DNA of 64,000 bases, from assembly GCA_963702895.1 (NCBI GenBank), contig OY969767.1, positions 2,528,001-2,592,000 of the forward strand. The letters run 5' to 3'. Shown here piece after piece: positions 1-25,863 of this stretch; position 1 is the first letter of the stretch; each line of letters opens with the position of its first letter. Made by a program: the position numbers and the translations under genes. Source of the DNA: an uncultured Elusimicrobia bacterium. Its GTDB lineage: Bacteria > Elusimicrobiota > Elusimicrobia > 2-01-FULL-59-12. The notes below the pieces were generated by a model. The model ran no database searches and had not been told where the DNA came from. It was given only the letters and a program-made list of their open reading frames with translations.

Positions 1-22
1 TCGATCAGCTTCTTGGGGTATT

Positions 23-3000
23 TCATTCGCGTGTCGCCATCTTCAATAGTGCCTTGATCTCGTAATTCATGCTTTCTACTCCGAAAGGGGCTTCATCCTT
101 GAACGCGCCGCGAACGTAGAATGGGCCTTCCGTTCGTTCTCCGTCCACCAGAACGATGGCGAGCGCAAATCGGTCCGGCTGGTTGAACCCGGTCAGAATC
201 TCGTTCTTCGTGACCGTTACGGTTTGCGCGTCCTTGGCGCGGCCTTTAACCTCAACAAACTTCAAGTCACCGCTTTTCAATTTGGAAGTGATGTCCCAGC
301 CGCATTTCTGTTTGGAAACGTCTTGAGGAGTGTTGTTCAGCGATAGTTCATGGCGCATGACCGCTTCCATCGCCATCCGTTCGATCTTCTCGCGGACGGC
401 AGGGTCCTGCGTCATCAGATCACCAGACCCCATTTTCTGGCGCAAGAGGCCCGCCGGAATGACCAGAGCGCCGCCCACCACACGCGGAGTGGCAGATATG
501 ACGTGGCGACGGGCTTCCAAGTCGGTTTGCCGTTCTTTGAGCCTCTGGTCCAGCTCCTCAGCCCGTTTGCGGGCATTGTCTGGTTGAAGGCGGGGTTGCT
601 TGCCCAAAGAAACCTGTTCCTGCAACTGGGCGGCACGCTTCTGCCAGTATGTGATTTCCTTGACCAAGCGCTCCTGAACGGCCTGCAAGGTCGCATCAAT
701 TAGCCGCTCTTGCCTCGATTGGACCTCACGGAGGTGCTCTGGCACTATGGTTTGCGCGGCATGGGCAATAATCAATGGCTCAAGGTCTTTGTGTAGCCAT
801 TGCTCTTGCAAAATGTCCTTGATGTGCTCACGTTCCTCATCCTTGAGCGGTCGATAATCCAGATAGGGGGCATAGCCACCTTGCGCCACTTGCCCCTTCC
901 GATCCACCTGCACAAACTGCAATCGCTCAGAAATCGGTCTTTGCTTCCCGTGTCGGTCCACCGCCCCATCACGAATCTGGTGTTCAAGGATAAACATGAC
1001 TCTCGGCTCCACTCCATCGTCGGCGCTGTCCACCAGAACGGTTCCGCGTTTAAGCAGGTCGCGGTACTTCTCGACAACGAGATCGAGTACTGAATCCATT
1101 AAGGGATGACCGGGGCATATTAAAACGGCTGGGGGCTTGCCGTTTTGTCGTATCTTGCTTTTCTCAAAACAGATACGTTCGTACTTTGGCGTAACCGGAT
1201 GCCCGCGTCCGATGACTTTGTCTCTATTGCGGATTACTGATGGGACGTGGGTGATCTCATAGCGACCTGATTCGCGTTGATGGATCTGCCCACCAAAGCA
1301 GGAAAATCCTTCGAGGAAGAATGCGCGGATAAAGTGTGGTTGGAGTTTCCGGGCTTCGGCCTTTTCCATATCGTCTTTGAGTGCGAAGACTTTGCTCGAA
1401 TCCATGTGCTCGGTTGCCAATGCGACGCGATCCATAATATCGCGCAACCGTTCCCGGTCAAGTGCCCCTTCGACCTTCTGATGCAGTCTGGCCTTGGCTT
1501 CCGGTGTTTCTCCTTCCCGGATGGCCTCGATAAGCAACTCGCGTAATGCAACTCCGCTAAAGACTTCACCCAGAATGTCGAATACACGGCCACCAAGCGC
1601 CTGCCGCTCGATATCGAGCTTCTGCAATAGCCTCTCGAACACATCGCCTTCGCGTGTTTCCTTCGCCACCATGTTCCAGCAATGACAGATTTCTTCCTGC
1701 CCGATGCGATGGATGCGGCCAAAACGCTGTTCGAGACGGTTGGCGTTCCACGGAAGGTCATAATTTATCAGCAGGTTGGCCCGTTGAAGATTGATACCTT
1801 CACCTGCCGCATCGGTGGCGACAAGGATCAAAACGTCTTTCTGGTTTGTGAACATCTCTTGGGTTTTGCGCCTCTCATCCCGATTCATGCCGCCATGAAT
1901 CGTCACAACCGCATCGTCGTTACCCATCAAGCCTTTGATCTTGTCCACCAGATAGCGCAGAGTATCTCGATGCTCGGTAAAAACGATCAGCTTGCGGCGG
2001 TTGCCGAACGAATCCTTCATCTCCGGGGTGTCTTGGAGCAGGCGGGAGAGTTCTTCCCATTTTTTATCCTCTCCCGATACTCGGACTTGATGTGCCTGCT
2101 TTTCCAGCCTCTTTAGGCTCTCGATCTCTCCTCCCAGCTCCGTGATGGTCTGAGCCGCTGTCGCCTGATCGACGACCTTTTCTTCGAGCGCCTCGACCTC
2201 AGAGTCCGGCGCGTCATCCAGAAAGTCGGCTATATCTTCTTCGGAGAAAGCCGGAAGATCAGGCTTTGCTACTGGGACGGTCTGCCCGCGTTTGCTGGAT
2301 AGCTCCTCTAACCGACCCTCCAAATTCTTGCGACGACGTTCGAGAGAGCGGAAGATCGCCTCCGGGGAAGATGCCAGTCGCCGTTGAAGCGTAGTCAATG
2401 CAAACCCGACCGTACCTCGACGATTGGTATCGAGTTTGTCGGCGCGGTCCATTTCGCCACGGACGTAGCTGGTCACCGCCTCATAAAGAGCCGATTCCTG
2501 TGCTGAGAGCTTGTAATTGGCCGTGTAGGCTTTGCGTTCCGGGAAAAGGGGTGTTCCTTCGAATGTGAGTAGCTCCTCCTTAATCATGCGACGCATCAGG
2601 TTAGTCACATCAGGTTGAACGTCTTTCTCTCTCGGTTTCCCGTAGAAACGATCTGGGTCCAAGAGAGCCATGAACAGATGGAAGTCCTCCGGCTTGCCGT
2701 TGTGCGGTGTGGCTGTCATCAGCAAGAGATGGCGTGTGATCCGGTCAAGCAATTTGCCGAGGTTGTACCGCTTCGTCGCCTTGATCTCGTTGCCGTAATA
2801 GGTCGCGGACATCTTGTGTGCTTCATCAACCACGATCAGGTCCCAGTCACTGTGGCTGAGACGAGCTTCTAATTCTTCGTCGCGGCTTAGTTGATCCAGA
2901 CGGCAGATTAGAAGGCTGTAACGCGGATCAGCGAAGATTTCTCCGGCGTGGCTGGAATTGTCCAGTTCCCGGCCAAAGATGTCGAAGACAAGGCCGAACT

Positions 3001-3517
3001 TCTCCTCAAGCTCATCCTGCCATTGTTCGACAAGCATCCCCGGCGCGATGATGAGACATCGCTTCACGTCTCCCCGGAGCATCAATTCCCGGATGAACAG
3101 CCCAGCCATGATGGTTTTGCCCGCGCCGGGGTCATCGGCTAAAAGGAATCGCAGGGGTTGTTTGGGAAGCATGGCATCATAGACAGCGGTAATCTGATGC
3201 GGCAAAGCCCGTACGTTGCTGGTATGAATCGCCATCAGTGGGTCAAACAGGTGGGCAAGCTGAATCCGTTGGGCTTCGGCGACAAGCCGGAAAGTCTGAC
3301 CATCCCCGTCAAAGGTCCACGGTCGACCTCCCATGGCGACAGAAAGCTTGTCCTCGTCCTGTCGGAACAGCATCCTCTCGCCCGTTCCACCAGCATCGTC
3401 ACGGTAGAACACACTGACCGCGTCGGTCCCGACCGGATTGACAGCAACGACCTTAGCCGCTTGATGCGGCAGAATCCCCCAGACAAGGGTTTCAGGTTTC
3501 AGTTCTTCGAGTTTCAT
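23..3517 (-). CDS. SNF2/RapA-like helicase with C-terminal DUF3883 (NOV_C-like) nuclease domain, typical of DUF499/DUF1156 restriction-like loci
   Basis: Walker A LLADDPGAGKT, DEAH box, TATPH, helicase-C QRFGRIHRIGQ, C-terminal GWDITS...FVEVKGR motif. Confidence 0.85.
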   Translation of the reverse strand: MKLEELKPETLVWGILPHQAAKVVAVNPVGTDAVSVFYRDDAGGTGERMLFRQDEDKLSVAMGGRPWTFDGDGQTFRLVAEAQRIQLAHLFDPLMAIHTSNVRALPHQITAVYDAMLPKQPLRFLLADDPGAGKTIMAGLFIRELMLRGDVKRCLIIAPGMLVEQWQDELEEKFGLVFDIFGRELDNSSHAGEIFADPRYSLLICRLDQLSRDEELEARLSHSDWDLIVVDEAHKMSATYYGNEIKATKRYNLGKLLDRITRHLLLMTATPHNGKPEDFHLFMALLDPDRFYGKPREKDVQPDVTNLMRRMIKEELLTFEGTPLFPERKAYTANYKLSAQESALYEAVTSYVRGEMDRADKLDTNRRGTVGFALTTLQRRLASSPEAIFRSLERRRKNLEGRLEELSSKRGQTVPVAKPDLPAFSEEDIADFLDDAPDSEVEALEEKVVDQATAAQTITELGGEIESLKRLEKQAHQVRVSGEDKKWEELSRLLQDTPEMKDSFGNRRKLIVFTEHRDTLRYLVDKIKGLMGNDDAVVTIHGGMNRDERRKTQEMFTNQKDVLILVATDAAGEGINLQRANLLINYDLPWNANRLEQRFGRIHRIGQEEICHCWNMVAKETREGDVFERLLQKLDIERQALGGRVFDILGEVFSGVALRELLIEAIREGETPEAKARLHQKVEGALDRERLRDIMDRVALATEHMDSSKVFALKDDMEKAEARKLQPHFIRAFFLEGFSCFGGQIHQRESGRYEITHVPSVIRNRDKVIGRGHPVTPKYERICFEKSKIRQNGKPPAVLICPGHPLMDSVLDLVVEKYRDLLKRGTVLVDSADDGVEPRVMFILEHQIRDGAVDRHGKQRPISERLQFVQVDRKGQVAQGGYAPYLDYRPLKDEEREHIKDILQEQWLHKDLEPLIIAHAAQTIVPEHLREVQSRQERLIDATLQAVQERLVKEITYWQKRAAQLQEQVSLGKQPRLQPDNARKRAEELDQRLKERQTDLEARRHVISATPRVVGGALVIPAGLLRQKMGSGDLMTQDPAVREKIERMAMEAVMRHELSLNNTPQDVSKQKCGWDITSKLKSGDLKFVEVKGRAKDAQTVTVTKNEILTGFNQPDRFALAIVLVDGERTEGPFYVRGAFKDEAPFGVESMNYEIKALLKMATRE

Positions 3518-3519
3518 TC

Positions 3520-3615
3520 AAAAAAAGACGAGGTCCCGGAAACCATTGGGTGGCAAAACCGGGACCTCAAAAACATAGAAATGGCGTTATCCTGCCAGCG
3601 TCCCAATGGTTTTTT
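3520..3615 (-). promoter_or_regulatory. Putative terminator/antiterminator leader upstream of the helicase
   Basis: 10-bp stem GAGGTCCCGG/CCGGGACCTC followed by GTCTTTTTT just before the ATG; upstream AAACCATTGGG...TGGCA is complementary to the loop. Confidence 0.45.
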
Positions 3616-3661
3616 CATTCACGCTCCCGCTCAGTTCAGCATGTGTAGAGCACACCTGTTT

Positions 3662-4270
3662 TCACAATTGAGTTTCTTTTCTAGCTGAATGTAACAATCC
3701 CAGATGACTCAAGGCTGTTTCAACTGCTTCCGTGGCTTCTGATGCAGAGCAACAGAAGACTTCTCCAAATGGAGCTTGCTTATCGTGACGCTCCGCTAAG
3801 ATTTTATGCGTTAGGTATTCAACCTTCTCGACACCTTCCGTATAAAAAGCGGCCATAAATTGCCACTCTCCCACTGGTCGAGGGTAGTGACGATACCTTT
3901 CTATTCGCTTTTCAAGAGTATTCACTATCCGAACGGCTGAATTTCTTTCACTACCGGAAAGTTGGCCGAGACGACTAATAATATTCTCTCGATAGGACTC
4001 AGCAAGCGCCACATCTTTTTCAAGGGGTAACGCGTTGCCCCCCGAACAACCTCTGCCACTTTTAACATGTTGAGGAACAAGCCCCATGATGTTAAGTAAA
4101 CGACCGCCACAAACCTGACAAGTGACCTTTCGCTCTAGCCACATATCATTGAAAGTTCGAAGCCGATCCGCTACATCATTAACTCCAATAGCAGTCATTC
4201 CGATTTTCACGCGCTGAACTGCGGAGTTTTCAAAAATATATACAGCACCGTGGTAGAGAAAATCGCGCAT
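3662..4270 (-). CDS. GIY-YIG / T5orf172-like nuclease family protein
   Basis: GAVYIFEN...VKIGMT...DRL N-terminus, VEYLTHKIL...GEVF C-terminus, CQVC insert. Confidence 0.7.
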   Translation of the reverse strand: MRDFLYHGAVYIFENSAVQRVKIGMTAIGVNDVADRLRTFNDMWLERKVTCQVCGGRLLNIMGLVPQHVKSGRGCSGGNALPLEKDVALAESYRENIISRLGQLSGSERNSAVRIVNTLEKRIERYRHYPRPVGEWQFMAAFYTEGVEKVEYLTHKILAERHDKQAPFGEVFCCSASEATEAVETALSHLGLLHSARKETQL

Positions 4271-4322: not shown

Positions 4323-4412
4323 TGGCGGAGGGTGAGGGATTCGAACCCCCGATAAGCTTTCGCCTATAACGCTTTTCAAGAGCGTCGCCTTCAACCGCTC
4401 GGCCAACCCTCC
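4323..4412 (-). tRNA. tRNA-Ser(TGA), intact, CCA encoded
   Basis: GGAGGGTTGGCCGAGCGG...ACGCT CTTGAAA AGCGT, long variable arm, GGTTCGAATCC, ends CCCTCCGCCA. Confidence 0.95.
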
Positions 4413-4425
4413 AAATCTATTCGAC

Positions 4426-5178
4426 TCAGGTCGCATGGGCGACATTTCGCCATGCCCCATCTTTCAACTGCACATAATGCATAACGATCTGTTCAGTTGC
4501 GTTTTGAATGTCTATGGTCAGATCAAAAATATCCTTCCATAAATCATCAATTTTCATTTCGGTTAAATCTCCGAGGACCTGCTGTGCCGCGCCATCCGCA
4601 AAATGGTATCTGGTCGAACCAGCCGTGGCTCCCCTTGATATATAGGGCGTTCTCTTCTCCTCTGGTTCAACTAAATCAAAACGATTCCTAAAGCCTCTCA
4701 ATAACTCGGCGGGGTCGTAATGGAAAGTGACTTTATTTCGAATTCGTAACAGGACCTTATATGTCCTGCTGTTGGCCTTCCCACCAACAGCGAACGCGAC
4801 AAATTCTTTCCACTTGGCTCGCGCTCGCTTATTCATTTTGTCTACTATCTTTTTCATGAGCGGATGTTTCAGCGCATTTTCGTTGTCGACAATGTAGTCA
4901 ACGACGCTAAAGATCAGGCTAATATATTGACGCTGTAGGTGATAAATCAGGCCCCCATATTCACCCCATTCGGGAGTCGCCGCCCACTCGCCCTTAGGTG
5001 TCTGCTTTTTCAAAGTCTCCCATGCCGCCGCAACATCAGCTAAGTCATTATGGGCCAGAGCAAAACTAAGCACCAAACCAGCGACCCCGCTCTCATCTGG
5101 ATCAATCTTCGTAAAGACCTGAGCACTAAAACTCTCCAAGTCGGCCAGCTTGAATTCTCTGATTTCACCGATGCTCAC
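4426..5178 (-). CDS. Hypothetical protein, probable HEPN-fold RNase
   Basis: 250 aa, helical character, RNKVTFH matches the Rx4-6H HEPN motif. Confidence 0.5.
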   Translation of the reverse strand: MSIGEIREFKLADLESFSAQVFTKIDPDESGVAGLVLSFALAHNDLADVAAAWETLKKQTPKGEWAATPEWGEYGGLIYHLQRQYISLIFSVVDYIVDNENALKHPLMKKIVDKMNKRARAKWKEFVAFAVGGKANSRTYKVLLRIRNKVTFHYDPAELLRGFRNRFDLVEPEEKRTPYISRGATAGSTRYHFADGAAQQVLGDLTEMKIDDLWKDIFDLTIDIQNATEQIVMHYVQLKDGAWRNVAHAT

Positions 5179-5294
5179 ATTTACAACTCCCTACGGCCTC
5201 ATTTACAACCTGCCCATAAAAACAGGGCTATCTCTGTCATCCATCGTATCACTCGCTCCGTCGAACAGGTGCGGTAGGTTGGCCGGTTTATTGG

Positions 5295-5334
5295 TTTTCA
5301 AGACAGGCTCCTTAAGCCGCTCGGACATCCCTCC
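5295..5334 (-). pseudogene. tRNA-Ser(TGA) 5' half relic
   Basis: GGAGGGATGTCCGAGCGGCTTAAGGAGCCTGTCTTGAAAA, then non-tRNA sequence. Confidence 0.85.
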
Positions 5335-5360
5335 GCTGCCAATCCTTCCCTTGCGCAACG

Positions 5361-5378
5361 CCACTCTCCCAACCCTCC
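5361..5378 (-). pseudogene. tRNA-Ser 5' fragment (nt 1-18)
   Basis: GGAGGGTTGGGAGAGTGG. Confidence 0.6.
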
Positions 5379-5471
5379 GCTGATCGCTTTCCTCATTTTG
5401 TCACTACGTCCAACCTTCCTTGACTCTAACAGGTTGGGACAATCCTCCCGCTCTATCATGGCGGGAGGACG

Positions 5472-5724
5472 CCTTCGGTACCCTTACGGGCACAGCTGTT
5501 TTCCCCTCCACTACATTGTTGGAGGGCCCGCCTAAGCCGGAGTGGCGGGAAGACATCCGGATCCCTCCTGCCCATTCCTTAAGGAGGAGGACCGCGCGCC
5601 AGTTACGCATCGGCGCGAGGTAAACCTCCGCCACATCCGACACACGTCAGTCGGATCCGCCCGAAGTGTGGCGGACGACAGGCGGAGAGCGCCTGTCGTG
5701 TGGCGCTCACTCTCCCAAGCCTCC
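5472..5724 (-). pseudogene. tRNA-Ser(TGA) relic interrupted by twin-hairpin insertions
   Basis: Joining 5724-5708, 5625-5621, 5562-5550 and 5503-5472 gives GGAGGCTTGGGAGAGTGGTTTAATCCGGATGTCTTGAAAACAGCTGTGCCCGTAAGGGTACCGAAGG. Confidence 0.8.
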
Positions 5725-5739
5725 GAAACGTGGATAAGA

Positions 5740-6093
5740 TCATTTATCTGCTTTCGGTGGGGGCACGGTATGCTCAAGGCATTGGATAAGGGATGGAAGA
5801 TCCTTCATGACTGTGTCCCAAACAATCTCAAGATCAATATCATCATAGTCATGAATCAAAACGCTGCGAATACCGATCATCTGCTGCCAGGGAATATCCG
5901 CCAGAGCCGCCCGCGTCTCGGGCGAAATGCGACGAGACGCTTCCCCAATAACTTCCAGCCGCCGTATAACAGCATCCTGGCATTGCGAATCGGACAGAAA
6001 GGTTTCGTAAGAATGATGGACCAGATACTGGCGGGCTCCTCGAGCCGCGTTCAGGATATCGAGCAGATACCCCGCATCACGCGGCGGCAGCAT
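5740..6093 (-). CDS. HepT-like ribonuclease toxin (DUF86/HEPN)
   Basis: DAVIRRLEVIGEA...IPWQQMIGIRSVLIHDY. Confidence 0.9.
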   Translation of the reverse strand: MLPPRDAGYLLDILNAARGARQYLVHHSYETFLSDSQCQDAVIRRLEVIGEASRRISPETRAALADIPWQQMIGIRSVLIHDYDDIDLEIVWDTVMKDLPSLIQCLEHTVPPPKADK

Positions 6094-6394
6094 AGAGAGA
6101 CTGCGCTGTGGAGAGGATTTCAGTCCGTCGCAAATAATTGGCGCTTCGCTCCAGCCCTCGACGGCTAACCAAATCGACAGGACGCTGGAACAACCTGCTC
6201 AATTCCTCTTGCATCTGGACGAAATCGAAGAGTGTAGGGTGCGACTGTGGCTTGAATGTCACTAACAAATCGATATCGCTCGTATCGGAAAAATCCGGAC
6301 GCAAAGCAGACCCAAAAAGAAATAGTTCCTCGATTCCCTTTTGACGGCAAAACTGAGCAAGACGCTCACGATCAATGTTTATCTTCGGGCTCAT
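6077..6394 (-). CDS. Minimal nucleotidyltransferase (MNT) antitoxin
   Basis: LFGSALR...SDIDLLV...VDLVS; overlaps the DUF86 gene; start taken at MSPKIN. Confidence 0.9.
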   Translation of the reverse strand: MSPKINIDRERLAQFCRQKGIEELFLFGSALRPDFSDTSDIDLLVTFKPQSHPTLFDFVQMQEELSRLFQRPVDLVSRRGLERSANYLRRTEILSTAQSLYAAAA

Positions 6395-6555
6395 AGCTTC
6401 TAGATTATATGTCCTGTACCCACAGCTTTCCACAAAAGGTTTAGACCTTCATACGCCCGACTTTACAACAACAGGACACAAAAGTGTAAAACTCGGTACA
6501 ACTCCGTACAAGTCCTTTGAATGAAAAACTGCGCGACGTTTGGCCGTAGGGTAAC

Positions 6556-6594
6556 TTTCAAGAGCATCGCCCTATACCACTCGGCCATCCCTCC
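6556..6594 (-). pseudogene. tRNA-Ser(TGA) 5' half relic
   Basis: GGAGGGATGGCCGAGTGGTATAGGGCGATGCTCTTGAAA, then non-tRNA sequence. Confidence 0.85.
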
Positions 6595-6632
6595 TAAATC
6601 AGTATGCAGAGCATCCATCGACGCCACTGATT

Positions 6633-7190
6633 TCATTTGACGATCGGTTCATAACGGATCGTCGTTGTGCTCCATTTCACGAAATCCATTCTAATTCGGT
6701 CGACTTTCTCTCCGCCATCCAGATAATACCCTCTCGGATTCGATAACTTGCCGCCTTTAAAATCATACGTTCCACCTGCACATGTCCCTGAGTGCGAGTA
6801 TGTTACAGGAGCGCCGTTTAATTTCTCGAGTTCCTTCAGACTTGTCCCTAGCGTGATACCGTTTTGTAACTGCCATAAGCTCTTATCCCCGGAAATAGTG
6901 AATGATACGAGCATGGCATTCTCGCCCCATTTATCGATTTCGACCTCGGCTTTCTTTAATTTATCATCCGGAAAGATTACTATTCCGGGTTCTGTCTCTT
7001 CAGGACCAACTGCGGCACCAATTACGTTCTTCTTGCCTAGGCGTTCTTCTAATACGCTCACAGAGGTCTGGGCCGTAATCCATCCTGCACGTATGCCCGG
7101 CACAAGCTTCCAGTCATCCTGTTCAGCGGTACTGATCGAACAAAGAAACATCAGTATGCTGCCGATACTGGCAGTTTTACGAAGTCCCAT
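6633..7190 (-). CDS. Hypothetical secreted protein
   Basis: GGAGG RBS before MGLRKTASIG, signal-peptide-like N-terminus, GITLGTSLKELEKLNG motif. Confidence 0.6.
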   Translation of the reverse strand: MGLRKTASIGSILMFLCSISTAEQDDWKLVPGIRAGWITAQTSVSVLEERLGKKNVIGAAVGPEETEPGIVIFPDDKLKKAEVEIDKWGENAMLVSFTISGDKSLWQLQNGITLGTSLKELEKLNGAPVTYSHSGTCAGGTYDFKGGKLSNPRGYYLDGGEKVDRIRMDFVKWSTTTIRYEPIVK

Positions 7191-7556
7191 AATCCCTCCT
7201 ATTCGTGCGGTGAGACTATATGCAATTAAGCTTGCCATATAGACGACCGTTGACAACTTCATTGACGGCCACACCATCTATTTCAGGCTATGCCCGCCAA
7301 CCTCTGTCTCACTCACCCTGTCGTCCCGGTCCCCCATTTAATTTAACCGGCCGGGACGTACCGACTAAGATTCGCTCGCCGGAGGCTCGCTTCACGGTCG
7401 AACGGTACGAACAGGTGCGGCCGCCTTATCGGCCCTCCGAAGCCTTGGCGAAGGAGGGTAGGTCGCCAGACTTCCGGCGACTTCCGCCACAAGACGGGCG
7501 GACTCGACGGCTGTGTGTCGAGCACCGGACGGCTTGGCGAGTTGGCTGGTTTATTG

Positions 7557-7683
7557 GTTTTCCCACCTTCGCAACAACGCGCTGCCGCGCCGCTACGGTG
7601 GGCAAGCAAGACATCCAGATCCCTCCTTCCCATTCTTTAAGGAGGAGGGCCGCGCGCCAGTTACGCATCGGCGCGAGGTAAAC
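7557..7683 (-). pseudogene. tRNA-Ser(TGA) D-loop-to-anticodon relic with two insertions
   Basis: GTTTA|58-bp insert near-identical to 5563-5620|ATCTGGATGTCTT|45-bp insert|GAAAAC. Confidence 0.7.
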
Positions 7684-8035
7684 CTCCGCGTGATAGTCCT
7701 TTGATCTGACGATGGAGGGCAGGAATTTCATGCGCAATGACATCCCAAATGATGTGCACATCGAGCCCAAAATATTCGTGGGCAATCACATCGCGCAGTC
7801 CGGCAATTTTCCGCCAATCGACTTCCGGGTATTTATCCTTTAAGGATGGAGAGAGTCGCTTGACCGCCTCACCGATGATCATCAGATTGTGGAACACGGC
7901 CTGTGATGTCTTTGGGTCCGCGAAGAAAGCTTCTTTGGAAAAGCCTGCGGAAAACTCAAGAATCCTTTCGCAGGATTGTTGGATGTCTTTTAAGAACAGC
8001 GCGTCTTCACGCGACACGGCGGGCGTCTTCTTCAA
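7661..8035 (-). CDS. HepT-like ribonuclease toxin (DUF86/HEPN); the 3' end runs into the tRNA relic
   Basis: AVFHNLMIIGEAVK...VDWRKIAGLRDVIAHEYFG; true start may be the GTG near 8014. Confidence 0.9.
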   Translation of the reverse strand: MKKTPAVSREDALFLKDIQQSCERILEFSAGFSKEAFFADPKTSQAVFHNLMIIGEAVKRLSPSLKDKYPEVDWRKIAGLRDVIAHEYFGLDVHIIWDVIAHEIPALHRQIKGLSRGGLPRADA

Positions 8036-8318
8036 TGAAGGGCCGAATTTCAGGACGAATAGCCGGGCGAGTCAGCAGATCAACGGGGCATCCGAGCAGG
8101 TCCTCCAGATAGAACTTGAGCTTCATGTATTGGTCATAGGTCGGCGGTTTGATGAAATCCACAAGCAGATCCAGGTCACTGTCTGAGCGTTCGTCGCCGC
8201 GAGCAACGGACCCAAAGACATGAAGGGCGGCCACCCCAAAATCCTTCAGGTCTGGTTGAATGTTGTTCATGCGGCTCTTAACCTGTGCAAGATTCACAAT
8301 GGCCCCATTATACTCCAT
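8007..8318 (-). CDS. Minimal nucleotidyltransferase (MNT) antitoxin
   Basis: VFGSVARG...SDLDLLVDF...PVDLLT; start uncertain. Confidence 0.9.
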   Translation of the reverse strand: MEYNGAIVNLAQVKSRMNNIQPDLKDFGVAALHVFGSVARGDERSDSDLDLLVDFIKPPTYDQYMKLKFYLEDLLGCPVDLLTRPAIRPEIRPFIEEDARRVA

Positions 8319-8334
8319 CCCTCATCCAGCCACG

Positions 8335-8367
8335 CACTCGGTACGCCCACCACACACCCACCCCTCC
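8335..8367 (-). pseudogene. tRNA-Ser 5' fragment with a short insert remnant
   Basis: GGAGGGGTGG|16 nt|CCGAGTG. Confidence 0.5.
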
Positions 8368-8407
8368 GCTCACGACCCTTCTTGTGCGCCATGCACCGAT
8401 GCACGAC

Positions 8408-8818
8408 TTACCCTTTGATGCGGCCTGCCCAGCTTTCAACCTTGAGTGAGCTGCGATCTGCCAGCCGGTCAAAGTCTCTGTCCGCGTGCAGAAGCGTAAG
8501 CCCATTCTGTAAAGCTTTAAAGGCAATGAGAAGATCCATCGATTTCGCGGACACTCCTTTTCGTGCCAGCCGTGCCCCCCACTCCGCCGCTTCGCTCCAA
8601 TCCGTTTCTAAAAACGGCAATACCTGCAAGCTCCGCAACCGGTGCTTCAGATGCTCCGCTTCCTTGGGGGTCCGGACACCCCGAAGAATCTCAAACAGGA
8701 TGGGGGGGGTGGTCGCTGCCTGATTGTCCAGCACGAGCGAGCCCACGCGATCTTTCAACAAGTCATGCGGCTTGGGACCCAGAACAAATAACCAGGCTGA
8801 TGTGTCGATTAAGAACAA
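8408..8818 (-). CDS. vapC: VapC PIN-domain toxin
   Basis: LIDTSAW, ILFEIL, SMDLLIA, LHADRDF. Confidence 0.9.
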   Translation of the reverse strand: MFLIDTSAWLFVLGPKPHDLLKDRVGSLVLDNQAATTPPILFEILRGVRTPKEAEHLKHRLRSLQVLPFLETDWSEAAEWGARLARKGVSAKSMDLLIAFKALQNGLTLLHADRDFDRLADRSSLKVESWAGRIKG

Positions 8819-8821
8819 GTG

Positions 8822-9019
8822 TCAGGCCCGCGAGCGCGAGAGCTTGCTGGTCGTCCAGTTGAGTCGGTATCGGCTAAACTCCTTGACGAACGTCTTACGC
8901 TCGATCTCCGCAAGGATGTTCCGGAGACCCGCCTCAAGGGCTTCTCTCTGGGAAGCCGCTTTCATGGCGCGCATCGCTTGAACCAAAAGGCGTTCATCGA
9001 TATTGGTCGTAATTTTCAT
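8822..9019 (-). CDS. vapB: VapB antitoxin
   Basis: MKITTNIDERLL...AM; AGGAGG RBS; directly upstream of vapC. Confidence 0.85.
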   Translation of the reverse strand: MKITTNIDERLLVQAMRAMKAASQREALEAGLRNILAEIERKTFVKEFSRYRLNWTTSKLSRSRA

Positions 9020-9071
9020 TTCATCCTCCTGATTCACTTGAGTATGGCTATACTTGCCATAAAGTATATGG

Positions 9072-9097
9072 CATCTGTTGCCATATTTCAACAGATG
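9072..9097. promoter_or_regulatory. Palindrome upstream of vapBC, probable autoregulatory operator
   Basis: CATCTGTTG...CAACAGATG inverted repeat. Confidence 0.45.
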
Positions 9098-9102
9098 GGC
9101 GC

Positions 9103-9181
9103 CCACTCGGCCTGAGCGCTCTACGTTTATGGCGCTCAGGTGCCGCCTCCTTTGAGAAATAGGATGCGGCGCCATCTCTCC
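9103..9181 (-). pseudogene. tRNA-Ser 5' fragment with a 61-bp twin-hairpin insertion
   Basis: GGAGAGATGG|9171-9111 two abutting hairpins|CCGAGTGG. Confidence 0.7.
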
Positions 9182-9240
9182 AAGATTTTGGCCCGTTCAA
9201 TGTAATCTAGAGGCCATGGTGCATGGACAATTTTTATTGT

Positions 9241-9654
9241 TTATCGAGAGGGCGCAATGAGCGCGATGACAACTCCGGCGAGCAAACATTGAACCATGCC
9301 CCCCACAAACCAGCCCACGGCCATCGAGACCGGAATCGGCACCATAAAATACGTCCCCAGGCTCATGCCCGAGGCCATCAGAAGCCCGATGAGCGCGCCA
9401 AACCGCAAACCCTGTCCGACACGCGCTTTTTGAGGTTCGAAGCCTTTCAGATAAAGAACGGGCAGTATGGCGGCATCGATGAGATACATCACCCACATGG
9501 TCCACATCAGCGCTTGCATCTCTGCCATCGGCCGCCATACGCTCGCTGTCGCTTCATACGCGCTTTTCATGAGAACACCGTGAATCACGAAATCCGTTAC
9601 AAAAAGAACCCCCGCCACCGCCGCCACCGCCGCCAACCATCGTTTCATCGTCAT
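9241..9654 (-). CDS. Small membrane protein with about 4 TM segments (DUF1761-like)
   Basis: Hydrophobic segments, GLRFGALIG; AGGAG RBS. Confidence 0.65.
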   Translation of the reverse strand: MTMKRWLAAVAAVAGVLFVTDFVIHGVLMKSAYEATASVWRPMAEMQALMWTMWVMYLIDAAILPVLYLKGFEPQKARVGQGLRFGALIGLLMASGMSLGTYFMVPIPVSMAVGWFVGGMVQCLLAGVVIALIAPSR

Positions 9655-9673
9655 GTCAAGTTCCTCCTTTTCT

Positions 9674-10057
9674 CTAAATATTGATCGATCCCCCGTTTGC
9701 GCGATTTGGGAATGATACTTCTAAGACGACGCACCCCACGTCCGTTTGGAACGGGCCATGAACCTCTCCGGGTGGCCGACTTGCATAGTGTCCGCTCTCA
9801 AGCCAAAGGTCAAAGGCTTTGTCATAAAGTCTGCCACTGACTACAAATATTTCTTCAGGATAATCGTGGCTCTTTCCCCCCAATGGAGTCGTGTCAGCGC
9901 CAGGGAGAAAACGTGTCAGCCGCGTATACTCTCCCGTTTCCTTGTCGATGCTAAGGGTCACCTCCTCGGCCATTCCCTCAATACCTTGGACGGGGGACCA
10001 ACGAGCGTTTTGAGCCGGTCTCAAGGAGTTCCAGTAAGCGGTTGTTGATTTCGACAT
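9674..10057 (-). CDS. ChrR-like cupin domain protein
   Basis: TRLTRFLPG, HDYPEEIFVVSG, YASRPPGEVHGPF. Confidence 0.85.
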   Translation of the reverse strand: MSKSTTAYWNSLRPAQNARWSPVQGIEGMAEEVTLSIDKETGEYTRLTRFLPGADTTPLGGKSHDYPEEIFVVSGRLYDKAFDLWLESGHYASRPPGEVHGPFQTDVGCVVLEVSFPNRANGGSINI

Positions 10058-10236
10058 GCCGTTTTACTCTTGATCAAAATGTCCTGGGTCAAACCCAGGA
10101 CTTCCCAACTCCATACCACTCCGTTTACAACCTACCTGGGAAACTCCTTACCACATCGTCAACGCCCGACACACGTCCGTCGGATCCGCCCGAAGTGTGG
10201 CGGACGACGGGCGGAGAGCGCCTGGTGTCTGGCGCT

Positions 10237-10353
10237 CGCGCGGCCCCGTCTCTTGCATCGTTCGTCCCTGGCGAACTTATTGGTCGGGACCGTCCCGGCT
10301 ATTATCGCTCACAATCGCGAGCGTGATAAAGAGGATAGGACGGCCACCCCTCC
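10237..10353 (-). pseudogene. tRNA-Ser 5' fragment with hairpin insertions
   Basis: GGAGGGGTGG|insert|CCGCGCG, followed by the same D-loop insert as at 5626-5707. Confidence 0.65.
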
Positions 10354-10355
10354 GC

Positions 10356-10631
10356 TCACGACCCTTCCTGGTTTTCGATCGCCTCGAGCGACTGGGCCAC
10401 GGACGCATTGTCGCTGGGCAGGCAAATCACGCGCTCGCGGCCAACCTCGGTCCGCAAAACGGTCAGGACCTCGTCGAGCCAGGACGGGCCGACGGCCAGG
10501 ACCCCGCTGAAGTCGAGCTCGATCCGGTCCCCCGGAGCGGGTTTGAAATAGGCCTTGATGGCGAGCCCCGCTTCCCGGCCGGATGGCCGAGAGGTCAGGA
10601 TTTCCCCGAATTTACGGACTTCGACTTTCAT
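10356..10631 (-). CDS. STAS-like domain protein (DUF4325)
   Basis: LTSRPSGRE...IELDFSGV...PSWLDE. Confidence 0.8.
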   Translation of the reverse strand: MKVEVRKFGEILTSRPSGREAGLAIKAYFKPAPGDRIELDFSGVLAVGPSWLDEVLTVLRTEVGRERVICLPSDNASVAQSLEAIENQEGS

Positions 10632-12650: not shown

Positions 12651-12701
12651 CGGCGGCTCTTTTCTGGGAATGATTTTATCCAAAATCCCGGGAACCGTGC
12701 T

Positions 12702-13292
12702 CTATTCGTCTTCGGCCAGCGCATGGGGATTATGACAAGCGATGCAATCCATTTCCGCCCCTTCAAGAGCCGCATGGGGCTCCAGGCGCCGGAAAGCCCG
12801 GTTGTTGCGGTGGCATTGGAAGCAAAGCTCTTGGATCGTGGGCCGGATCCACAAATGGGGGTTTTTGCCCGCACCGTGTATGGAATGACACGCCAGACAG
12901 GAGATGTCCCGCGTCTCATGGATGCTGCCGACCCATTTGGTCCGCGCGCTCTTCTCGTGGCACTGGAGGCAGAAACGGTTGAGCGCGGCAGAGGACCATT
13001 TCGCCGGTTTGCGGATTTTGGCGAAATCCGGATTCCGTTTGTCCCCTCCCGCGCCGGCATGGAGCGCCCCTGGACCGTGACAGAATTCGCAGGTGTTCTG
13101 GAAATCGATCTTCTTCGCCTTGGGCATGGCCTTGCCGTGCGGGGAATCCTTGAAGCCCGCCATCGACTCATGGCAGGCCAGGCAAGCGTCGGCACCCACC
13201 GACTCCTCACTTGCTGGCGAAGCGGCGCGGGCCCAGCTTGCCGCGAGCAGGGCCACAACACTTAGGATGCGAAACGAGAATGCTTTATTCAT
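12702..13292 (-). CDS. Periplasmic 6-heme cytochrome c (DmsE/MtrA-like, short)
   Basis: Signal peptide; CLACH, CEFCHGPG, CLQCH, CLACH, CFQCH, CIACHNPH. Confidence 0.85.
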   Translation of the reverse strand: MNKAFSFRILSVVALLAASWARAASPASEESVGADACLACHESMAGFKDSPHGKAMPKAKKIDFQNTCEFCHGPGALHAGAGGDKRNPDFAKIRKPAKWSSAALNRFCLQCHEKSARTKWVGSIHETRDISCLACHSIHGAGKNPHLWIRPTIQELCFQCHRNNRAFRRLEPHAALEGAEMDCIACHNPHALAEDE

Positions 13293-13297
13293 TTGTT

Positions 13298-14662
13298 CTA
13301 CCAGTGATAGCGGATGCCAAGGTCCATCGTGGTCACGTGGACATGCTCCTGGGTCGAAAAGGTGGCGCCCGTGTCCAGGTCCCACTGGCGGGACAGTCGC
13401 CAGGTTAAGCGCGCCGATTCGTCATTATTCTTCCACTTTTTCACGTCGTTCGGGCGTCCGCTGTAGCGGAAGTTCCAGTTCAGGCGTGCCATGAGTTTTC
13501 CCTCCCAGAACGGGAGATCACCCGAGAGCCCTCCGCCATAACCGTCCCCTTCGGCGTCGCTCAGGTTAAACCAGGATGCCGTCAAGAGCGCCCCGCGGAG
13601 CTCCAGGAGCCCTTGGCGACTGAGACTGATTCTCCACAGCGTTGGCGAAAGAGACTCTGGCGACTGGAAAAAGGAGACGTCCCCGTCAGCTCGCAAACCC
13701 CAGGGCAACTTTTCGGATCCTCCCACCCAGTAGCGCCAGGAGCCGCTCGTGAAGTTGTCCGGACCTCCTGCGGCCCGCTCGGCCCGGGTGTCGGGACGTT
13801 CATAATGACTCATGCCGCCGCGCAGCTGAAGGAAAGGGGTGACGGGAGAGAGGCCATAGAGATTCAGCTGCGTGAAGCGCGGCCCCCGGTCAAGCACCGC
13901 TCCTCCAGAATCAAAGTTCAGCTTTGCGGAGACGAAAAGATTCATGAAGCGCGTGAGGTCCGCGCGCTGGTCGTAGAGCAGGGCCAGTTCGTCCGCCTCT
14001 CCTTTGTAGAGCGTCTGCAAAAAACCCAGTGTCCCTGTGTAATACATGTTCCCGCGCGTGCCGGCGTGCGCGGTCGCATAGGCGGAGCCCATCACTTCAT
14101 CACCGGAAACGCTCATGTCCTTTCGGTCAGGTCGGGCGCCCGCCGCCGCTCCAACGCGGAAGGTTGGCGAGGCGACCGTCTCGAGCTGTATTCCATCCAA
14201 GTAACCAAGGCTAGGCAGTTCGACTGGGGCCAGGCGACCCAACCGCGTGAAGCCCTCTTTCTCCCCCTTTCGCGAGAACATGAAGCGTCTGAGGTAGAGC
14301 TTGGGATCGCGGAAATCGGTCGAGACCGAACTAACATTCCCGTCACGATAGGAGACATTGCCTGCCCAAACGAAGGACCAGGGACTTCCGCCCAGCCGTT
14401 CGACGCTGCCGTCTGATACGGCGCGACCTGTCCAATAGTGGGACTCAGGCTGATTCACGGAGTGATACAAGTTCCAGAGCTGCAGCGAGCCGTGTGAGAT
14501 ATTGGAGGACCTACTCGTCACGACGCGTGGGGCATAGGGAGCCAAAAGCGGTGTGAACACATCGTTATCTGTTTCCGCAGCAAAGGAGCTCGCGACCGCG
14601 AACAAGATCGGCGCGAACAACCGATAGGCCCTGACTAGTCTGCTTCTCCGTTGCGGTGACAT
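13298..14662 (-). CDS. Putative outer-membrane beta-barrel (porin) partner of the cytochromes
   Basis: Signal-like segment, amphipathic strands, ends DLGIRYHW; start uncertain. Confidence 0.65.
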   Translation of the reverse strand: MSPQRRSRLVRAYRLFAPILFAVASSFAAETDNDVFTPLLAPYAPRVVTSRSSNISHGSLQLWNLYHSVNQPESHYWTGRAVSDGSVERLGGSPWSFVWAGNVSYRDGNVSSVSTDFRDPKLYLRRFMFSRKGEKEGFTRLGRLAPVELPSLGYLDGIQLETVASPTFRVGAAAGARPDRKDMSVSGDEVMGSAYATAHAGTRGNMYYTGTLGFLQTLYKGEADELALLYDQRADLTRFMNLFVSAKLNFDSGGAVLDRGPRFTQLNLYGLSPVTPFLQLRGGMSHYERPDTRAERAAGGPDNFTSGSWRYWVGGSEKLPWGLRADGDVSFFQSPESLSPTLWRISLSRQGLLELRGALLTASWFNLSDAEGDGYGGGLSGDLPFWEGKLMARLNWNFRYSGRPNDVKKWKNNDESARLTWRLSRQWDLDTGATFSTQEHVHVTTMDLGIRYHW

Positions 14663-15696
14663 GAATAGCATGCAGGGGAGCTGTAGGAATAACCGGGGAC
14701 ACCTCCGTGGTGACCATCCGTGACAGGCTTGGCATGGCAACCTAGACAGCTGAAATTCGAGGGTGTCCCACCCTGGTGGCACTGCATACAGGTGGACCCT
14801 TTATGGTTTTGCGGGAAAGGGTGATTGAGGCTTGCGCCCGACCAGCTGCCGCCAGCCGTATGGCAGGAGCCACAGGTTGTCGGAAAGCCCACCGTGCTGT
14901 GGTTTGGCGCGCGGTTATAGTCGTCTGCATGACAGGCGTAACAGTTGGGATTGGGGCCTAGGCCACTGTGATCAAAACGGGCCCCGCTGAAAGACACGGT
15001 GCTGTGGCACTTCCAACAAACCGTCGAATAGCCATTGGCGACATGGCTCGGCCCGCGCTGGAAGTCGACCGCATGGCAGGCATAACACTCCGTGGGCGTC
15101 CCCCGGTAGTCGCCGGCCGCGGCGCGACTGTGACATTCCTCGCATTGAAGCGTGCGGTGACGTCCGGATAGAGGAAATGGCGTCCGGGCATGCACATCAA
15201 TCACATTGTCCACCCGCCAGCTATTTTGATTGTGGCAGCGCAAGCAGTCGAGCCCGTTGGACCCGCGGTGCGGGTCGAGGTGGCACCCGGCACATCCACG
15301 CGCCGTATAACCCTTAACGGGTCCACGATCGTTGTGGCAGCGCAGACACACGGCGGAGGCATGCCCGCCCTCCAGGGCAAAACCGGTTTCCTTTTTATGG
15401 TCAAACCGAAAGTCTTCGCGCAGCACGCCCCAGTTTTTGGCGGTGTGGCAAAGACCACAGTCTTTTGGGAACTGTTTGTGAGAGATGACGGGACCCCATT
15501 TTTTGCGGTCCCAGCGGACCCGTTCATCGGCCGCGCTCGCGTGAAGGGAGAGCCCTACGGAGACCATCGTTAGCACGCCTAGCCACGCCGGCTTTCTGCG
15601 CGCAGGCGACGGGCTTGATACGACGATGGGGAGAATCAGTGGCGGCCTCCTGTAGTATCCGGCAGTAAGTCTATTCGTAATTACAGGAACTTCCAA
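14635..15696 (-). CDS. 12-heme cytochrome c
   Basis: 12 CxxCH motifs, FDH...F.L.G.H repeats; true start probably downstream of 15696. Confidence 0.85.
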   Translation of the reverse strand: MEVPVITNRLTAGYYRRPPLILPIVVSSPSPARRKPAWLGVLTMVSVGLSLHASAADERVRWDRKKWGPVISHKQFPKDCGLCHTAKNWGVLREDFRFDHKKETGFALEGGHASAVCLRCHNDRGPVKGYTARGCAGCHLDPHRGSNGLDCLRCHNQNSWRVDNVIDVHARTPFPLSGRHRTLQCEECHSRAAAGDYRGTPTECYACHAVDFQRGPSHVANGYSTVCWKCHSTVSFSGARFDHSGLGPNPNCYACHADDYNRAPNHSTVGFPTTCGSCHTAGGSWSGASLNHPFPQNHKGSTCMQCHQGGTPSNFSCLGCHAKPVTDGHHGGVPGYSYSSPACYSCHRNGEAD

Positions 15697-15751
15697 GGCT
15701 TATTTTGCTTAAGCGGCACCCTAAAATCTGGCGTGGCCAGCCTTCCGGTCT

Positions 15752-23806: not shown

Positions 23807-23923
23807 CGTCGGCATCCTACTAATTTTATTCTGCTGAACCAAATGGGGGTAGACGCCTCCCACAAGTCGCTGATGAACAGAAAAAAGCTGCCCAGGGACA
23901 CTTTTGGGAGGCCCGCAGTTTGG

Positions 23924-25366
23924 TTACTCCGACTGGGGGGGTTCCTTCCAGCGCATGGCGGCGACTTGGCCCTGCCGGGCGTAGTCGGCGGCCTCCCCCA
24001 GGATCCGCGCCGCTTCTTGCGGGGCGTGGAACCCCATGGAGTTTTCCGCCGCCACAAAATCGAGTCTCCACTGGGCTTTGCGCTGCAAGTCTAAAGAGGC
24101 GGCCAATTGGGCGTCGGTCGCGCCTTCTTGTCGAGCTCTCTTAACGGCATCGAGCTGGTCCATGAGAGCGGCGGCGCTTCTTTGCAGGAGTTCATGATTG
24201 CGCACCTGAATCGACTCGACACGCGCCCTGATCTCCTCCTCCGGGAAGTGGTGGCAGCTCTGGCAGGCGCGGTTGATGTTCAAGAGCGGACTTCTCACCC
24301 AGTGGTCGGAGACTTTGGTGGCGCCGTCGCGCATGTATGGCATGTGGCAATCCGCGCAGGCGACGCCGCTTCGGGCGTGAATGCCCTGGCTCCACATCTC
24401 ATACTCCGGGTGCTGGGCTTTCAAGAGCTTGGCGCCGGATTCCGCATGCGCGAAGTCGAAGAACGGCGTGCCATCGGGGAACTTAGACTCGTTCCAGAAC
24501 GCTTCTAAGTTTTCGGCCTTGAGACCTTTCCCCCAAGGGTAGCTCAGCGGCTGTTTGGACGAACAGTAGTACTCGACATGGCATTGCCCACACACAAAAG
24601 ACCGCATCTCGGTCTGGGAAGCTTCTTCGTTGGGTTCATACGGTTTCTTGCGGTTGCCTGCCCTCCATTGCTCGATCGAAGGAATGTGGGGCACCGGCGC
24701 TTTGGATTCGGCCAGCATTCGGATGCCCTGGATGAACCCGGGCCTCGTCACGCGAAGGCGCATGCTTTTGGGATCGTGGCAGTCCACGCAGGACACCGGG
24801 TGGGCGTGGCCCATCTCATGAAGCATCTTGTCCAGTTCCTGGAAGCTGAACTTGTAGCTGGCCTCAAGGCCTTTGGCGGCGTCGCCGTCTCCCAACTTCC
24901 GGTAGAGCGGCATGACCGAAGCATGGCAATGCAAGCAGGACCCCGTTTGCGGCTTGGTGAGGCGCTGGGTCTTTTCTTGATCGGACAGCATGTAGGCATG
25001 GCCTCTCCGGTCACGGTAATCGATCGAGAAGGCGTATCCCAGAAACATCCGTTTGAGCCAAGGGTCACGCTCAATTTTCTCGGCCGGCATGGCTTCGCTG
25101 CCGCCGTGCCCGCCAAAGCGCGTTCGCGTCGTGATGGCCGTCTTCTTGTAAGACCCGTATTCCCTGGGCCAATTGACGCCCCATCGGGCCGGATCCGTAT
25201 CCTCCTCCGTGACTTCGACCAGTCGCACGTAGGGGTTTTTGGCTTCACTTTTCCTTTCAAAAATATTCACGAGCAGCGCCGTGACGAGCGCCGTGGTCAG
25301 CGCAATTCCGATCGACAGGACAGCATAGAGTCTGAAACTTTTCAAACGTTCCAACAAGGTTTTCAT
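23924..25366 (-). CDS. nrfA: Ammonia-forming cytochrome c nitrite reductase NrfA (CxxCH heme-1 variant)
   Basis: RGHAY, five Cxx[29 protein letters not shown]. Confidence 0.93.
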
Positions 25367-25863
25367 GATGGTTCCCCTTCCTTTGGATCATATCGGCCCA
25401 TCCCTGTGGTTTCGCCGTGCCCAACGCTTGCGTGACAATGCGCACAACGCAAGGCATCGGGATCCTTGCGAGTGACGGGCGCCAGCCCATGCGTGAGTTG
25501 CTCGTGACACCGCAGACAGTTGGCGTTTAAGATCCGGCTGTTGCGCGGCGTGATCATGATGGGTTCGTTAAAATTCTGAAGCGTAAAGCCTTTGGAATGC
25601 CGGTAGCCGTTGTCCGCTTTGGACAGGTACTTCGGGATCAAGCTGTGCGGCAAATGACAATCGACGCAGGTGGCCGCGCTGTGGTGGCTGGCCTTTTGCC
25701 AGGAGCTGAATTCCGGGTTCATGATGTGGCAATTGACGCAGGCGCGCGGGTCTTTGCTTAGATAAGAAAACCCGTGGGCATAATGAAAGGTAAAAGCGCC
25801 AACCCCAACGAGGACGCCGATCAGCGCGGCGGTAAAAAATTCCCACGGCGATATCGGTTTCAT
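25363..25863 (-). CDS. nrfH: Cytochrome c nitrite reductase small subunit NrfH
   Basis: TM anchor, [11 protein letters not shown], four CxxCH, VGH. Confidence 0.93.

Follow-up and report, generated by a model that had tools for sequence, protein, structure and literature searches.

A dead tRNA-Ser(TGA) copy in a bacterial genome carries four tiny twin-hairpin inserts of a site-preferring kind

A dead copy of tRNA-Ser(TGA) was found in which four insertions of tiny, site-preferring twin hairpins are recorded, and the junctions of the main insert family mirror the target sequence. The window, i.e., the whole stretch of 64,000 nt that was analyzed, lies inside a 2.72-Mb genome in one contig (G000), and positions below are those of the window unless a contig is named. 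Four inserts at three sites and one terminal twin can be read directly from the DNA. As to their origin, it stands about even in our judgment that these twin hairpins are non-autonomous and were built at a cut site by GIY-YIG nucleases acting in trans. The dead copy and its inserts are arranged as follows, from the 5′ end of the tRNA.

5708..5724, minus strand: positions 1–17 of the dead copy (acceptor 5′ strand, D-stem 5′ strand, and D-loop up to the first G)
5688..5707, minus strand: outer part of insert 1, first 20-nt hairpin unit; the same unit type opens the inserts between the two G of the D-loop in L018 and L019
5687..5687, minus strand: central spacer of 1 nt, C, complementary to the target G that is duplicated
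5627..5686, minus strand: outer part of insert 1, second 20-nt unit (inverted), interrupted by the nested twin
5636..5675, minus strand: nested twin hairpin of 20+20 nt, with no spacer and no duplication; near-identical copy at 10165–10204
5626..5626, minus strand: target base G, duplicated; L018 and L019 share this layout
5621..5625, minus strand: rest of the tRNA D-loop, 5 nt
5563..5620, minus strand: insert 2, a 29+29-nt twin hairpin at the D-loop/D-stem junction, with no duplication; second copy at 7621–7678, and in L016 a related insert occupies the same junction
5550..5562, minus strand: D-stem 3′ strand, then the 5′ strand of the anticodon stem with the first three bases of its loop
5504..5549, minus strand: insert 3, a 23+23-nt twin hairpin inside the anticodon (between TT and GA), with no spacer and no duplication; relics of G002 and G008 are filled at the same site
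5472..5503, minus strand: tRNA from the 3′ side of the anticodon through the variable arm to the 5′ T-stem strand, where the tRNA homology stops
5407..5471, minus strand: fifth twin, of the TCC...GGA family, with a 3-nt spacer TTG and CG on either flank; the relic ends here

The inserts were excised by script, and the remaining 67 nt were compared with a profile HMM of 88 positions made from 20 intact Ser tRNAs. The excised sequence matched positions 2–68 of 88 with 31.8 bits (E 1.7e-7), whereas the unexcised sequence reached 4.6 bits, the intact gene 85.2 bits, and 60 random excisions of the same size at most 12.3 bits. The preliminary description, which had been made from the sequence alone, was thus right that splicing restores 67 nt of tRNA-Ser(TGA). 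Its insert coordinates on the minus strand (5626–5707 with a 40-nt twin at 5636–5675 nested in an outer twin, 5563–5620, and 5504–5549) were also right, and the D-stem, the TGA anticodon loop, the variable arm, and the 5′ T-stem strand matched what it had described. Two of its claims needed correction. The pair at 5407–5471, counted there as a fifth splitting insert, terminates the tRNA homology and does not interrupt it. Target duplications, said to be lacking, exist: the outer D-loop insert duplicates G (5708 and 5626) around a central C (5687), and the fifth pair is flanked by CG. The folding z-scores against shuffles were −6.1 for 5626–5707, −1.9 for 5563–5620 (a 58-nt block whose fold is just weakly significant), −3.0 for 5504–5549, and −4.6 for the fifth pair.

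Only 67 of approximately 88 nt of the tRNA return on excision. Past the fifth pair, no T-loop, 3′ T-stem, or acceptor 3′ strand resumes, and therefore no whole tRNA was restored; ARAGORN, also under relaxed settings, returned nothing from the excised sequence beyond an undetermined tRNA-???. The dead copy was identical to the 20 intact Ser tRNAs at 41–48 of 67 positions and to the neighboring gene at 45 of 67. It represents another allele than this neighbor, with compensated changes in the D-stem and one broken pair in the anticodon stem. Since an intact tRNA-Ser(TGA) is located 1.1 kb away and the fifth pair ends the homology, it was concluded that the 5′ tRNA-Ser piece is a dead copy rather than an intron-split gene. 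Moreover, all amino acids and codon families in G000 are served by an uninterrupted tRNA gene. Thus, no tRNA relies on insert removal, and the removal at the RNA level that had been raised earlier is not needed.

The dead copy belongs to a row of relics. At least eight 5′ tRNA-Ser pieces, starting at 5334, 5378, 5724, 6594, 7689, 8367, 9181, and 10353, lie upstream of the working gene up to approximately 10,350, and the copy starting at 5724 is the longest of them. The other main features of this row are listed below.

4323..4412, minus strand: working copy, the intact tRNA-Ser(TGA)
5160..5334, minus strand: 5′-half tRNA-Ser relic without insert, leading into a conserved arm-like sequence with GTTGTAAA repeats
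5360..5378, minus strand: second short 5′ tRNA-Ser relic
6550..6594, minus strand: 5′-half tRNA-Ser relic without insert
7540..7689, minus strand: relic with insert 2 and the same D-arm allele as the dead copy; its anticodon insert differs
9100..9181, minus strand: 5′ relic with a twin hairpin between positions 10 and 11
10150..10353, minus strand: 5′ relic in which position 13 is followed by a TCC...GGA twin; it also has a degenerate copy of the nested insert 1

The relics at 5724, 7689, and 10353 have inserts in common by descent. The 5′ halves without insert run from the anticodon loop into the conserved arm-like sequence, and this was found in G000, G002, G004, G005 (tRNA-Ser(CGA)), G006, G007, G008, and G010. 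At 5270–5292 and 7540–7562 (minus strand), the D-arm of the tRNA reappears, inverted and shortened, at the start of the arm that follows the 5′ relics, and repeats like GTTGTAAA also follow an integrase gene at G000:C1:2517030–2517503. The small genes between the relics comprise two nucleotidyltransferase (MNT)-HepT pairs, VapBC, a cupin, and orphans; the orphan ORFs at 4426–5178 and 6633–7277 received no NCBIfam name. The region 4412–10400 (minus strand) is an integrase-free row of cassettes with one or two genes each and a 5′ tRNA-Ser relic at every boundary. Several family genomes contain comparable cassette rows with the same arm-like sequence and with spacers down to approximately 200 bp. 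Downstream of the working tRNA, a 15.5-kb island (window 1–4270; G000:C1:2516560–2532323) ends in an integrase gene and carries a T5orf172-domain gene, an SNF2/NOV_C helicase, and the 351-aa integrase; past its 3′ tRNA fragment lies a further dead Ser 3′ copy holding three twins. Elsewhere in the window, multiheme cytochrome genes occupy 12700–15700 and 23900–25400 (minus strand), one of them for a cytochrome c552 (NrfA-like), and a DDE transposase gene at 31675–32835 (minus strand) adjoins tRNA-Ser(GCT).

The insertion sites of the dead copy are filled elsewhere as well. Two of the recurrences in the window that had been pointed out earlier stood as described: at 7679, a 58-nt insert with 94.8% identity has the same flanks, and at 9172 the tRNA continues past a twin (z −4.2). 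Others stood in part. At 7608 the flanks fit but the insert is a single weak hairpin (z −0.7), and at 10237 the same nested element is present (59 nt at 96.6%) but the resumption of the tRNA is not clear. For 10344, an insertion behind position 13 that duplicates CG (compare L025) is a better parse than one between positions 10 and 11. At 8358, a 16-nt insert without twin hairpin was found, and this case is weak. In other genomes the recurrence is observed directly: related, non-identical inserts fill the site between the two G of the D-loop in G001 and G007, and further inserts are located at the D-loop/D-stem junction in G008, between TT and GA of the anticodon in G002 and G008, and after position 13 in G009. 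Near-identical anticodon twins were found across genera. The proposal of tiny site-preferring inserts in spare tRNA copies was thereby borne out. The genome-wide extent of the inserts, their junction rule, and a candidate enzyme, described below, were not part of that proposal.

It had been left open whether such inserts accumulate in copies released from selection or trigger the replacement of the tRNA. Since one copy carries four inserts, at least three of the four entered an already dead gene. Insert-free 5′ Ser relics exist at 5334 and 6594 of the window and in L021 and L022. The spare copies at this locus likely came from integrase-type events, and with such an origin of the uninterrupted 5′ halves, the copies likely died first and were filled later. 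Accordingly, release from selection is the better order at this locus, while insertion-triggered replacement may apply at other loci.

To catalogue genomic copies and their flanks, as had been suggested, a detector for a 19–24 nt hairpin unit followed by an inverted unit was applied to G000 and to three block-shuffled genomes as a control. The insert boundaries recurred at other loci, and 106 twins were catalogued in G000 vs 1, 0, and 0 in the shuffled genomes. Of these twins, 44 lie within 700 bp of a tRNA, in zones that make up approximately 2.7% of the genome, and they cover 24 tRNA types; many tRNA genes in G000 are flanked by their own pieces, split by like inserts. The remaining twins mostly occupy the 3′ arm of NTS-like repeats, and some lie in terminator-like stems or in other twins. 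Identical stub-plus-twin units form tandem arrays at tRNA-Gln(CTG), -Phe, and -Asn. A single hairpin of 14–20 nt exactly replaces the anticodon arm in eight copies at six tRNA genes (tRNA-Ala, -Pro, -Arg, and -Thr stubs of G000), and likewise in the metagenome loci L156 and L157. A preference of the inserts for hairpin loops was not supported: of 87 distinct empty sites, 36 fell in loops, compared with 180 of 400 sites chosen at random.

The exact 20-nt twin pattern was present in 8 of 11 family genomes and in none of 150 other genomes of the phylum; in the genome collection, 26 of the 32 loci with it belong to Elusimicrobiota, so that G000 probably belongs to this phylum too, and the viral contigs gave no match. 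The family genomes without a twin match are G004, G009, and G010, of which G009 still has a TCC...GGA insert. The following side observations were also made. In G000, Ssn-like genes lie between NTS-like repeats at C1:543339 and 554279, where one IS110 family (five copies) sits in the repeat loops and twins sit in the 3′ arms, i.e., nesting is three layers deep. Tandem arrays of tRNA 3′ ends consist of 120-bp units at Val-GAC and 82-bp units at Gln-CTG (G000:C1:1171100–1171700 and 2455060–2455470), and a long 4-nt microsatellite follows tRNA-Ala(GGC) at approximately G000:C1:1700700–1700830.

The junctions of the main insert family were read directly as L-X-H1-revcomp(X)-inverted H2-X-R, where X is 0–4 nt of target. 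A twin with a central spacer is flanked on each side by a copy of X, as long as the spacer itself, and the spacer reads as the reverse complement of that X. The rule held for 70 of 77 spacer-bearing twins in G000 and 21 of 27 in the loci of other genomes. After pooling, 83 of 93 distinct spacer-bearing twins followed it; this count leaves out six loci from other phyla (L034, L036, L038, L049, L051, and L057), two of which gave twins, both breaking the rule. As CG and CCGG are self-complementary, a mirrored copy and a direct copy cannot be told apart for them. Among the 44 twins with non-palindromic X, the spacer was mirrored in 40 and a direct copy in none, and the direct-copy reading was rejected. 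When the spacers were permuted within length classes, 15.6 mirrored cases were obtained on average and at most 25 in any of 2000 rounds, vs the 40 observed. The 44 cases are not independent, as 19 belong to one family embedded in NTS-like repeats, 11 are G/C, and the T/A case is single.

Eight different values of X obey the rule. T-loops reading CA take TG and those reading CG take CG, and one homologous non-tRNA site shows X = T with spacer A in L069 vs X = C with spacer G in L055. In the dead copy, X is G with spacer C for the outer D-loop insert and has length 0 for the nested, D-junction, and anticodon inserts. In the TCC...GGA family, two bases are duplicated, and in the 3-nt spacer an additional base separates the two mirrored ones; 8 of 13 members fit fully, and the fifth pair fits with one mismatch.

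The units themselves are variable. The 195 units of 20 nt comprise 142 distinct ones; their stems are fixed, and their outer two pairs covary, an effect that the detector in part imposes. None of 86 twins with 20-nt units had two identical units, and partners in a twin resemble each other no more than randomly paired units do (6.5 vs 5.8 differences). Partner swapping was directly observed: among 24 units present at more than one site, 19 have another partner and 10 another spacer length, whereas 5 hold nearly the same partner. The first unit of the anticodon insert recurs in G000 with another partner at a tRNA-Leu(CAA) stub, and one 22-nt unit of G000 has a CG spacer and a CG duplication at tRNA-Leu(TAG) but neither at tRNA-Gly(GCC). 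An AG-stem unit is present in 12 of 12 twins with a one-base spacer, and 20-nt units seldom mix with 22–23-nt units. Because of these two regularities, the five kept partners, and the near-identical anticodon twins across genera, the twins are not random assemblies, and this fits unit movement or gene conversion. As the units have few free positions, identity across genomes may be due to chance.

Small nuclease genes lie close to the twins. G000 has eight short GIY-YIG frames and one of UvrC size, and five of the eight short ones are beside tRNAs; the two at tRNA-Asn terminate within the twin of a tRNA stub. No small GIY-YIG gene was found at the dead tRNA-Ser locus itself. A GIY-YIG frame with an internal TGA stop lies between tRNA-Ile and tRNA-Ala in the spacer of an rRNA operon (G000:C1:580617–580811). 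A tree of 31 proteins sorted by HMM was built, with loci for 30 of 50 matches, from which four UvrC-sized ones were left out and to which four other loci were added. It contains an 11-member clade (support 100/98), nine of whose genes lie no more than 350 bp from a tRNA, a second, Ssn-like clade of nine with NTS-like repeats flanking eight, three proteins linked to tRNA-Gln, and eight housekeeping-like ones. Two tRNA-linked proteins are encoded at L101:232–471 and L100:534–794 (both minus strand). Among solved structures, the closest are UPF0213 proteins, with Slx1 as a weak further match.

In G004, G009, and G010, GIY-YIG proteins are of UvrC size or housekeeping-clade only, and each of the other eight family genomes combines twins with one or more proteins of the tRNA-linked or Ssn-like clade. 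This co-occurrence fails to separate the two clades, the genomes are related and thus no independent samples, and in G009, where neither clade was detected, a TCC...GGA insert is present. Outside the family, 27 of 150 genomes of the phylum have relatives of the nuclease, and the 20-nt twin pattern was found in none. Among 38 metagenome loci with relatives of the Asn-linked protein, 20 have a tRNA, and 18 have interrupted duplicate fragments as judged by eye; L136, L138, and L161 contain the same twins and obey the CG rule. In L139–L154, nuclease relatives lie beside tRNA-Arg(TCG) copies with another conserved hairpin insert, between positions 32 and 33 of the anticodon loop. Judging from this sequence evidence, the mobilizer is probably the small tRNA-linked GIY-YIG nucleases acting in trans.

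A mechanism in five steps is proposed. First, integrase-type events at the anticodon loop would push 5′ tRNA pieces upstream, leaving spare copies. Second, the nuclease would nick both strands of structured DNA with a stagger of 0–4 nt, with X as the 3′ overhang of each end. Third, a hairpin unit of 20–23 nt from a pool would be joined onto each 3′ end, and the two units would face in opposite directions because one is joined at each end. Fourth, the hairpins would fold back and prime the copying of X, giving revcomp(X) at one end and X at the other. Fifth, revcomp(X) and X would anneal, followed by fill-in. These steps give the observed string with no added assumption; the extra central base of the TCC...GGA family is not explained by this model. 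A hit in a working gene would be lethal, and inserts would therefore survive, pile up, and even nest only in spare copies. Many GIY-YIG enzymes leave 2-nt 3′ overhangs. As GIY-YIG enzymes are hydrolases, joining would require a host ligase and polymerase or a further activity. More tentatively, this could represent mobility without a fixed element: single 20–23 nt hairpins would be ligated to both 3′ ends of a staggered break made by an 80-residue GIY-YIG nuclease reading the tRNA-DNA cloverleaf, fold-back synthesis would write an inverted copy of the overhang through which the ends rejoin, and recessed ends would swap the anticodon arm for one unit, the arrangement seen in the eight copies at six tRNA genes.

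The main rival, which we consider somewhat unlikely, is that the twin moves as a whole, in the manner of a REPIN or MITE, by a Y1/RAYT or IS110 enzyme, with the spacer as a guide pairing with X. It predicts the same junction rule, unit types follow spacer classes, and some pairs recur. Moreover, TnpA-REP cuts and transfers strands at REP hairpins, as described in the main text of PMC3333891, and G000 has 13 IS110 matches, one family of which lies in the loops of twin-hosting NTS-like repeats. However, an identical unit occurs with varied spacers and partners in one genome. RAYT was rejected as the mobilizer, since G000, the richest in twins, has one Y1 fragment of 55 residues only, whereas the twin-less G004 and G010 carry full-length Y1 genes. 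IS110 was rejected likewise: the mapped ends of two of the three families contain no hairpin unit (the third family consists of two diverged subgroups, and the end mapping covers the other two), and no copy lies beside a tRNA gene. A reverse transcriptase as writer of templated hairpins was also considered; three 507-aa frames exist at G000:C1:230277, 463860, and 1962540, none beside a tRNA gene.

It is also unlikely that a few old insertions were spread by recombination or gene conversion with no active mobilizer, the complementarity being kept by selection or hairpin-templated correction. The tandem arrays of identical stub-plus-twin units, the inserts shared by descent among the relics at 5724, 7689, and 10353, and the near-identical anticodon twins across genera are in its favor. 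Against it, the flanks fit each locus's own tRNA at many positions and in many isotypes (24 tRNA types), twins are nested inside twins, the T/A vs C/G case at one site would need three concerted changes, and 142 of 195 units are distinct. That the inserts are introns, removed at the RNA level to give a working or regulatory tRNA-Ser, is highly improbable. The register is exact after excision, and the D-stem changes are compensatory relative to the intact gene, but the 3′ part of the tRNA is absent, the anticodon stem has one broken pair, the uninterrupted tRNA set is complete and includes an intact tRNA-Ser(TGA) next door, and Rfam shows no intron family in the window. A search of sequencing runs listed none containing this stretch, which weighs neither for nor against RNA-level removal. 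Finally, GC-rich DNA had been parsed by eye and the side sites 8358 and 7608 are weak, but chance parsing or an assembly artefact is next to impossible given the shuffled-genome and random-excision controls and the same sites being occupied in separately assembled genomes.

Taken together, the preferred reading remains a dead copy filled by twins that were likely built at the target. In the literature searched, which covered main texts without supplements and few subscription journals, neither twin hairpins in bacterial tRNA copies nor such a junction rule was found, and the main text of a paper on tRNA fragments (PMC9897764) does not mention hairpins. The origin and spread of REP-like hairpin repeats is an old problem, in large part because unoccupied target sites and junctions are difficult to observe; from dead tRNA copies, the exact sequence before insertion can be read. 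The junction rule, with the target duplicated outside and mirrored inside, goes unmentioned in the main texts of PMC3733652 and PMC3333891, where the word "duplication" does not occur, and it provides a sharp prediction for the bench. It also points to very small nucleases that may recognize DNA structure, cousins of the Ssn enzymes, which have already been put forward as ssDNA tools. For annotation, the relics are misleading: with introns allowed, ARAGORN called several spurious intron-bearing tRNAs in G000. If the build-at-target mechanism is true, which for so broad a claim is possible rather than probable, a new mode of DNA mobility would have been found.

Among known systems, tRNA introns (group I, group II, or bulge-helix-bulge) leave a complete tRNA on removal, unlike the match to HMM positions 2–68 of 88 obtained here, and at the gathering threshold Rfam returned only the two intact tRNAs of the window. 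As in MITEs, the ends are inverted repeats, yet the two units are never identical (0 of 86), and in place of the fixed-length target duplication of a DDE transposase, 0–4 nt are duplicated with a mirrored copy inside. The double-hairpin elements and GC clusters of fungal mitochondria are tiny, GC-rich, geneless two-hairpin units thought to be mobile; they are organellar, unlike the inserts here, and the likeness is one of general description rather than of compared junctions. The tRNA-targeting islands in the Islander collection leave a tRNA fragment on integration (PMC4383910, main text), which explains the spare copies, and islands with a 5′-side fragment are known but rare there (159 of 3919). 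In contrast, the row described here comprises at least eight 5′ relics with one or two small genes between and no integrase, and islands leave the hairpin inserts unaccounted for.

The closest likeness on the DNA side is to REP dimers, BIMEs, and REPINs with their RAYT/TnpA-REP proteins. According to the main texts of PMC3733652 and PMC3333891, these are GC-rich hairpins of 20–40 nt with fixed stems and variable loops, like the inserts, and they form inverted pairs, often heterodimers, some 1–2 bp apart and some within other palindromes, like the twins. Short GC-rich units in inverted, multi-copy dimers were indeed found (106 twins in G000). However, no GTAG or CGTC tag marks the foot of a unit, as the flanks are target sequence up to the stem; no intact Y1 (HUH) transposase was found in G000; no linker is carried, the spacer in 83 of 93 twins being instead a reverse-complement copy of the target bases that are duplicated; and fixed positions inside tRNA copies set the inserts apart.

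On the enzyme side, the Ssn/NTS (SRM) system (Chenal et al. 2025, PMC11893778) is alike, since its hairpin repeats are tied to a stand-alone GIY-YIG protein of approximately 80–95 aa. SsnA is a small GIY-YIG enzyme that cuts ssDNA just upstream of its hairpin; the main text of the paper shows cleavage and not insertion and does not contain the word "tRNA," and a mobile origin is proposed by its authors themselves. A separate NTS-like family with Ssn-like genes exists in G000. The insert units lack the CGTC-tagged palindrome of NTS/SRM and use NTS-like repeats as targets, and the tRNA-linked proteins fall outside the NTS-flanked clade (cd10448, with the CDD clade judged by the 31-protein tree). 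The Ssn-type adjacency of a single-domain GIY-YIG gene is lacking at the dead tRNA-Ser locus and occurs beside twins at other tRNA loci. Thus, while the defining features of both systems fail, the inserts work like a REP dimer or REPIN, and the enzyme side works like Ssn/NTS.
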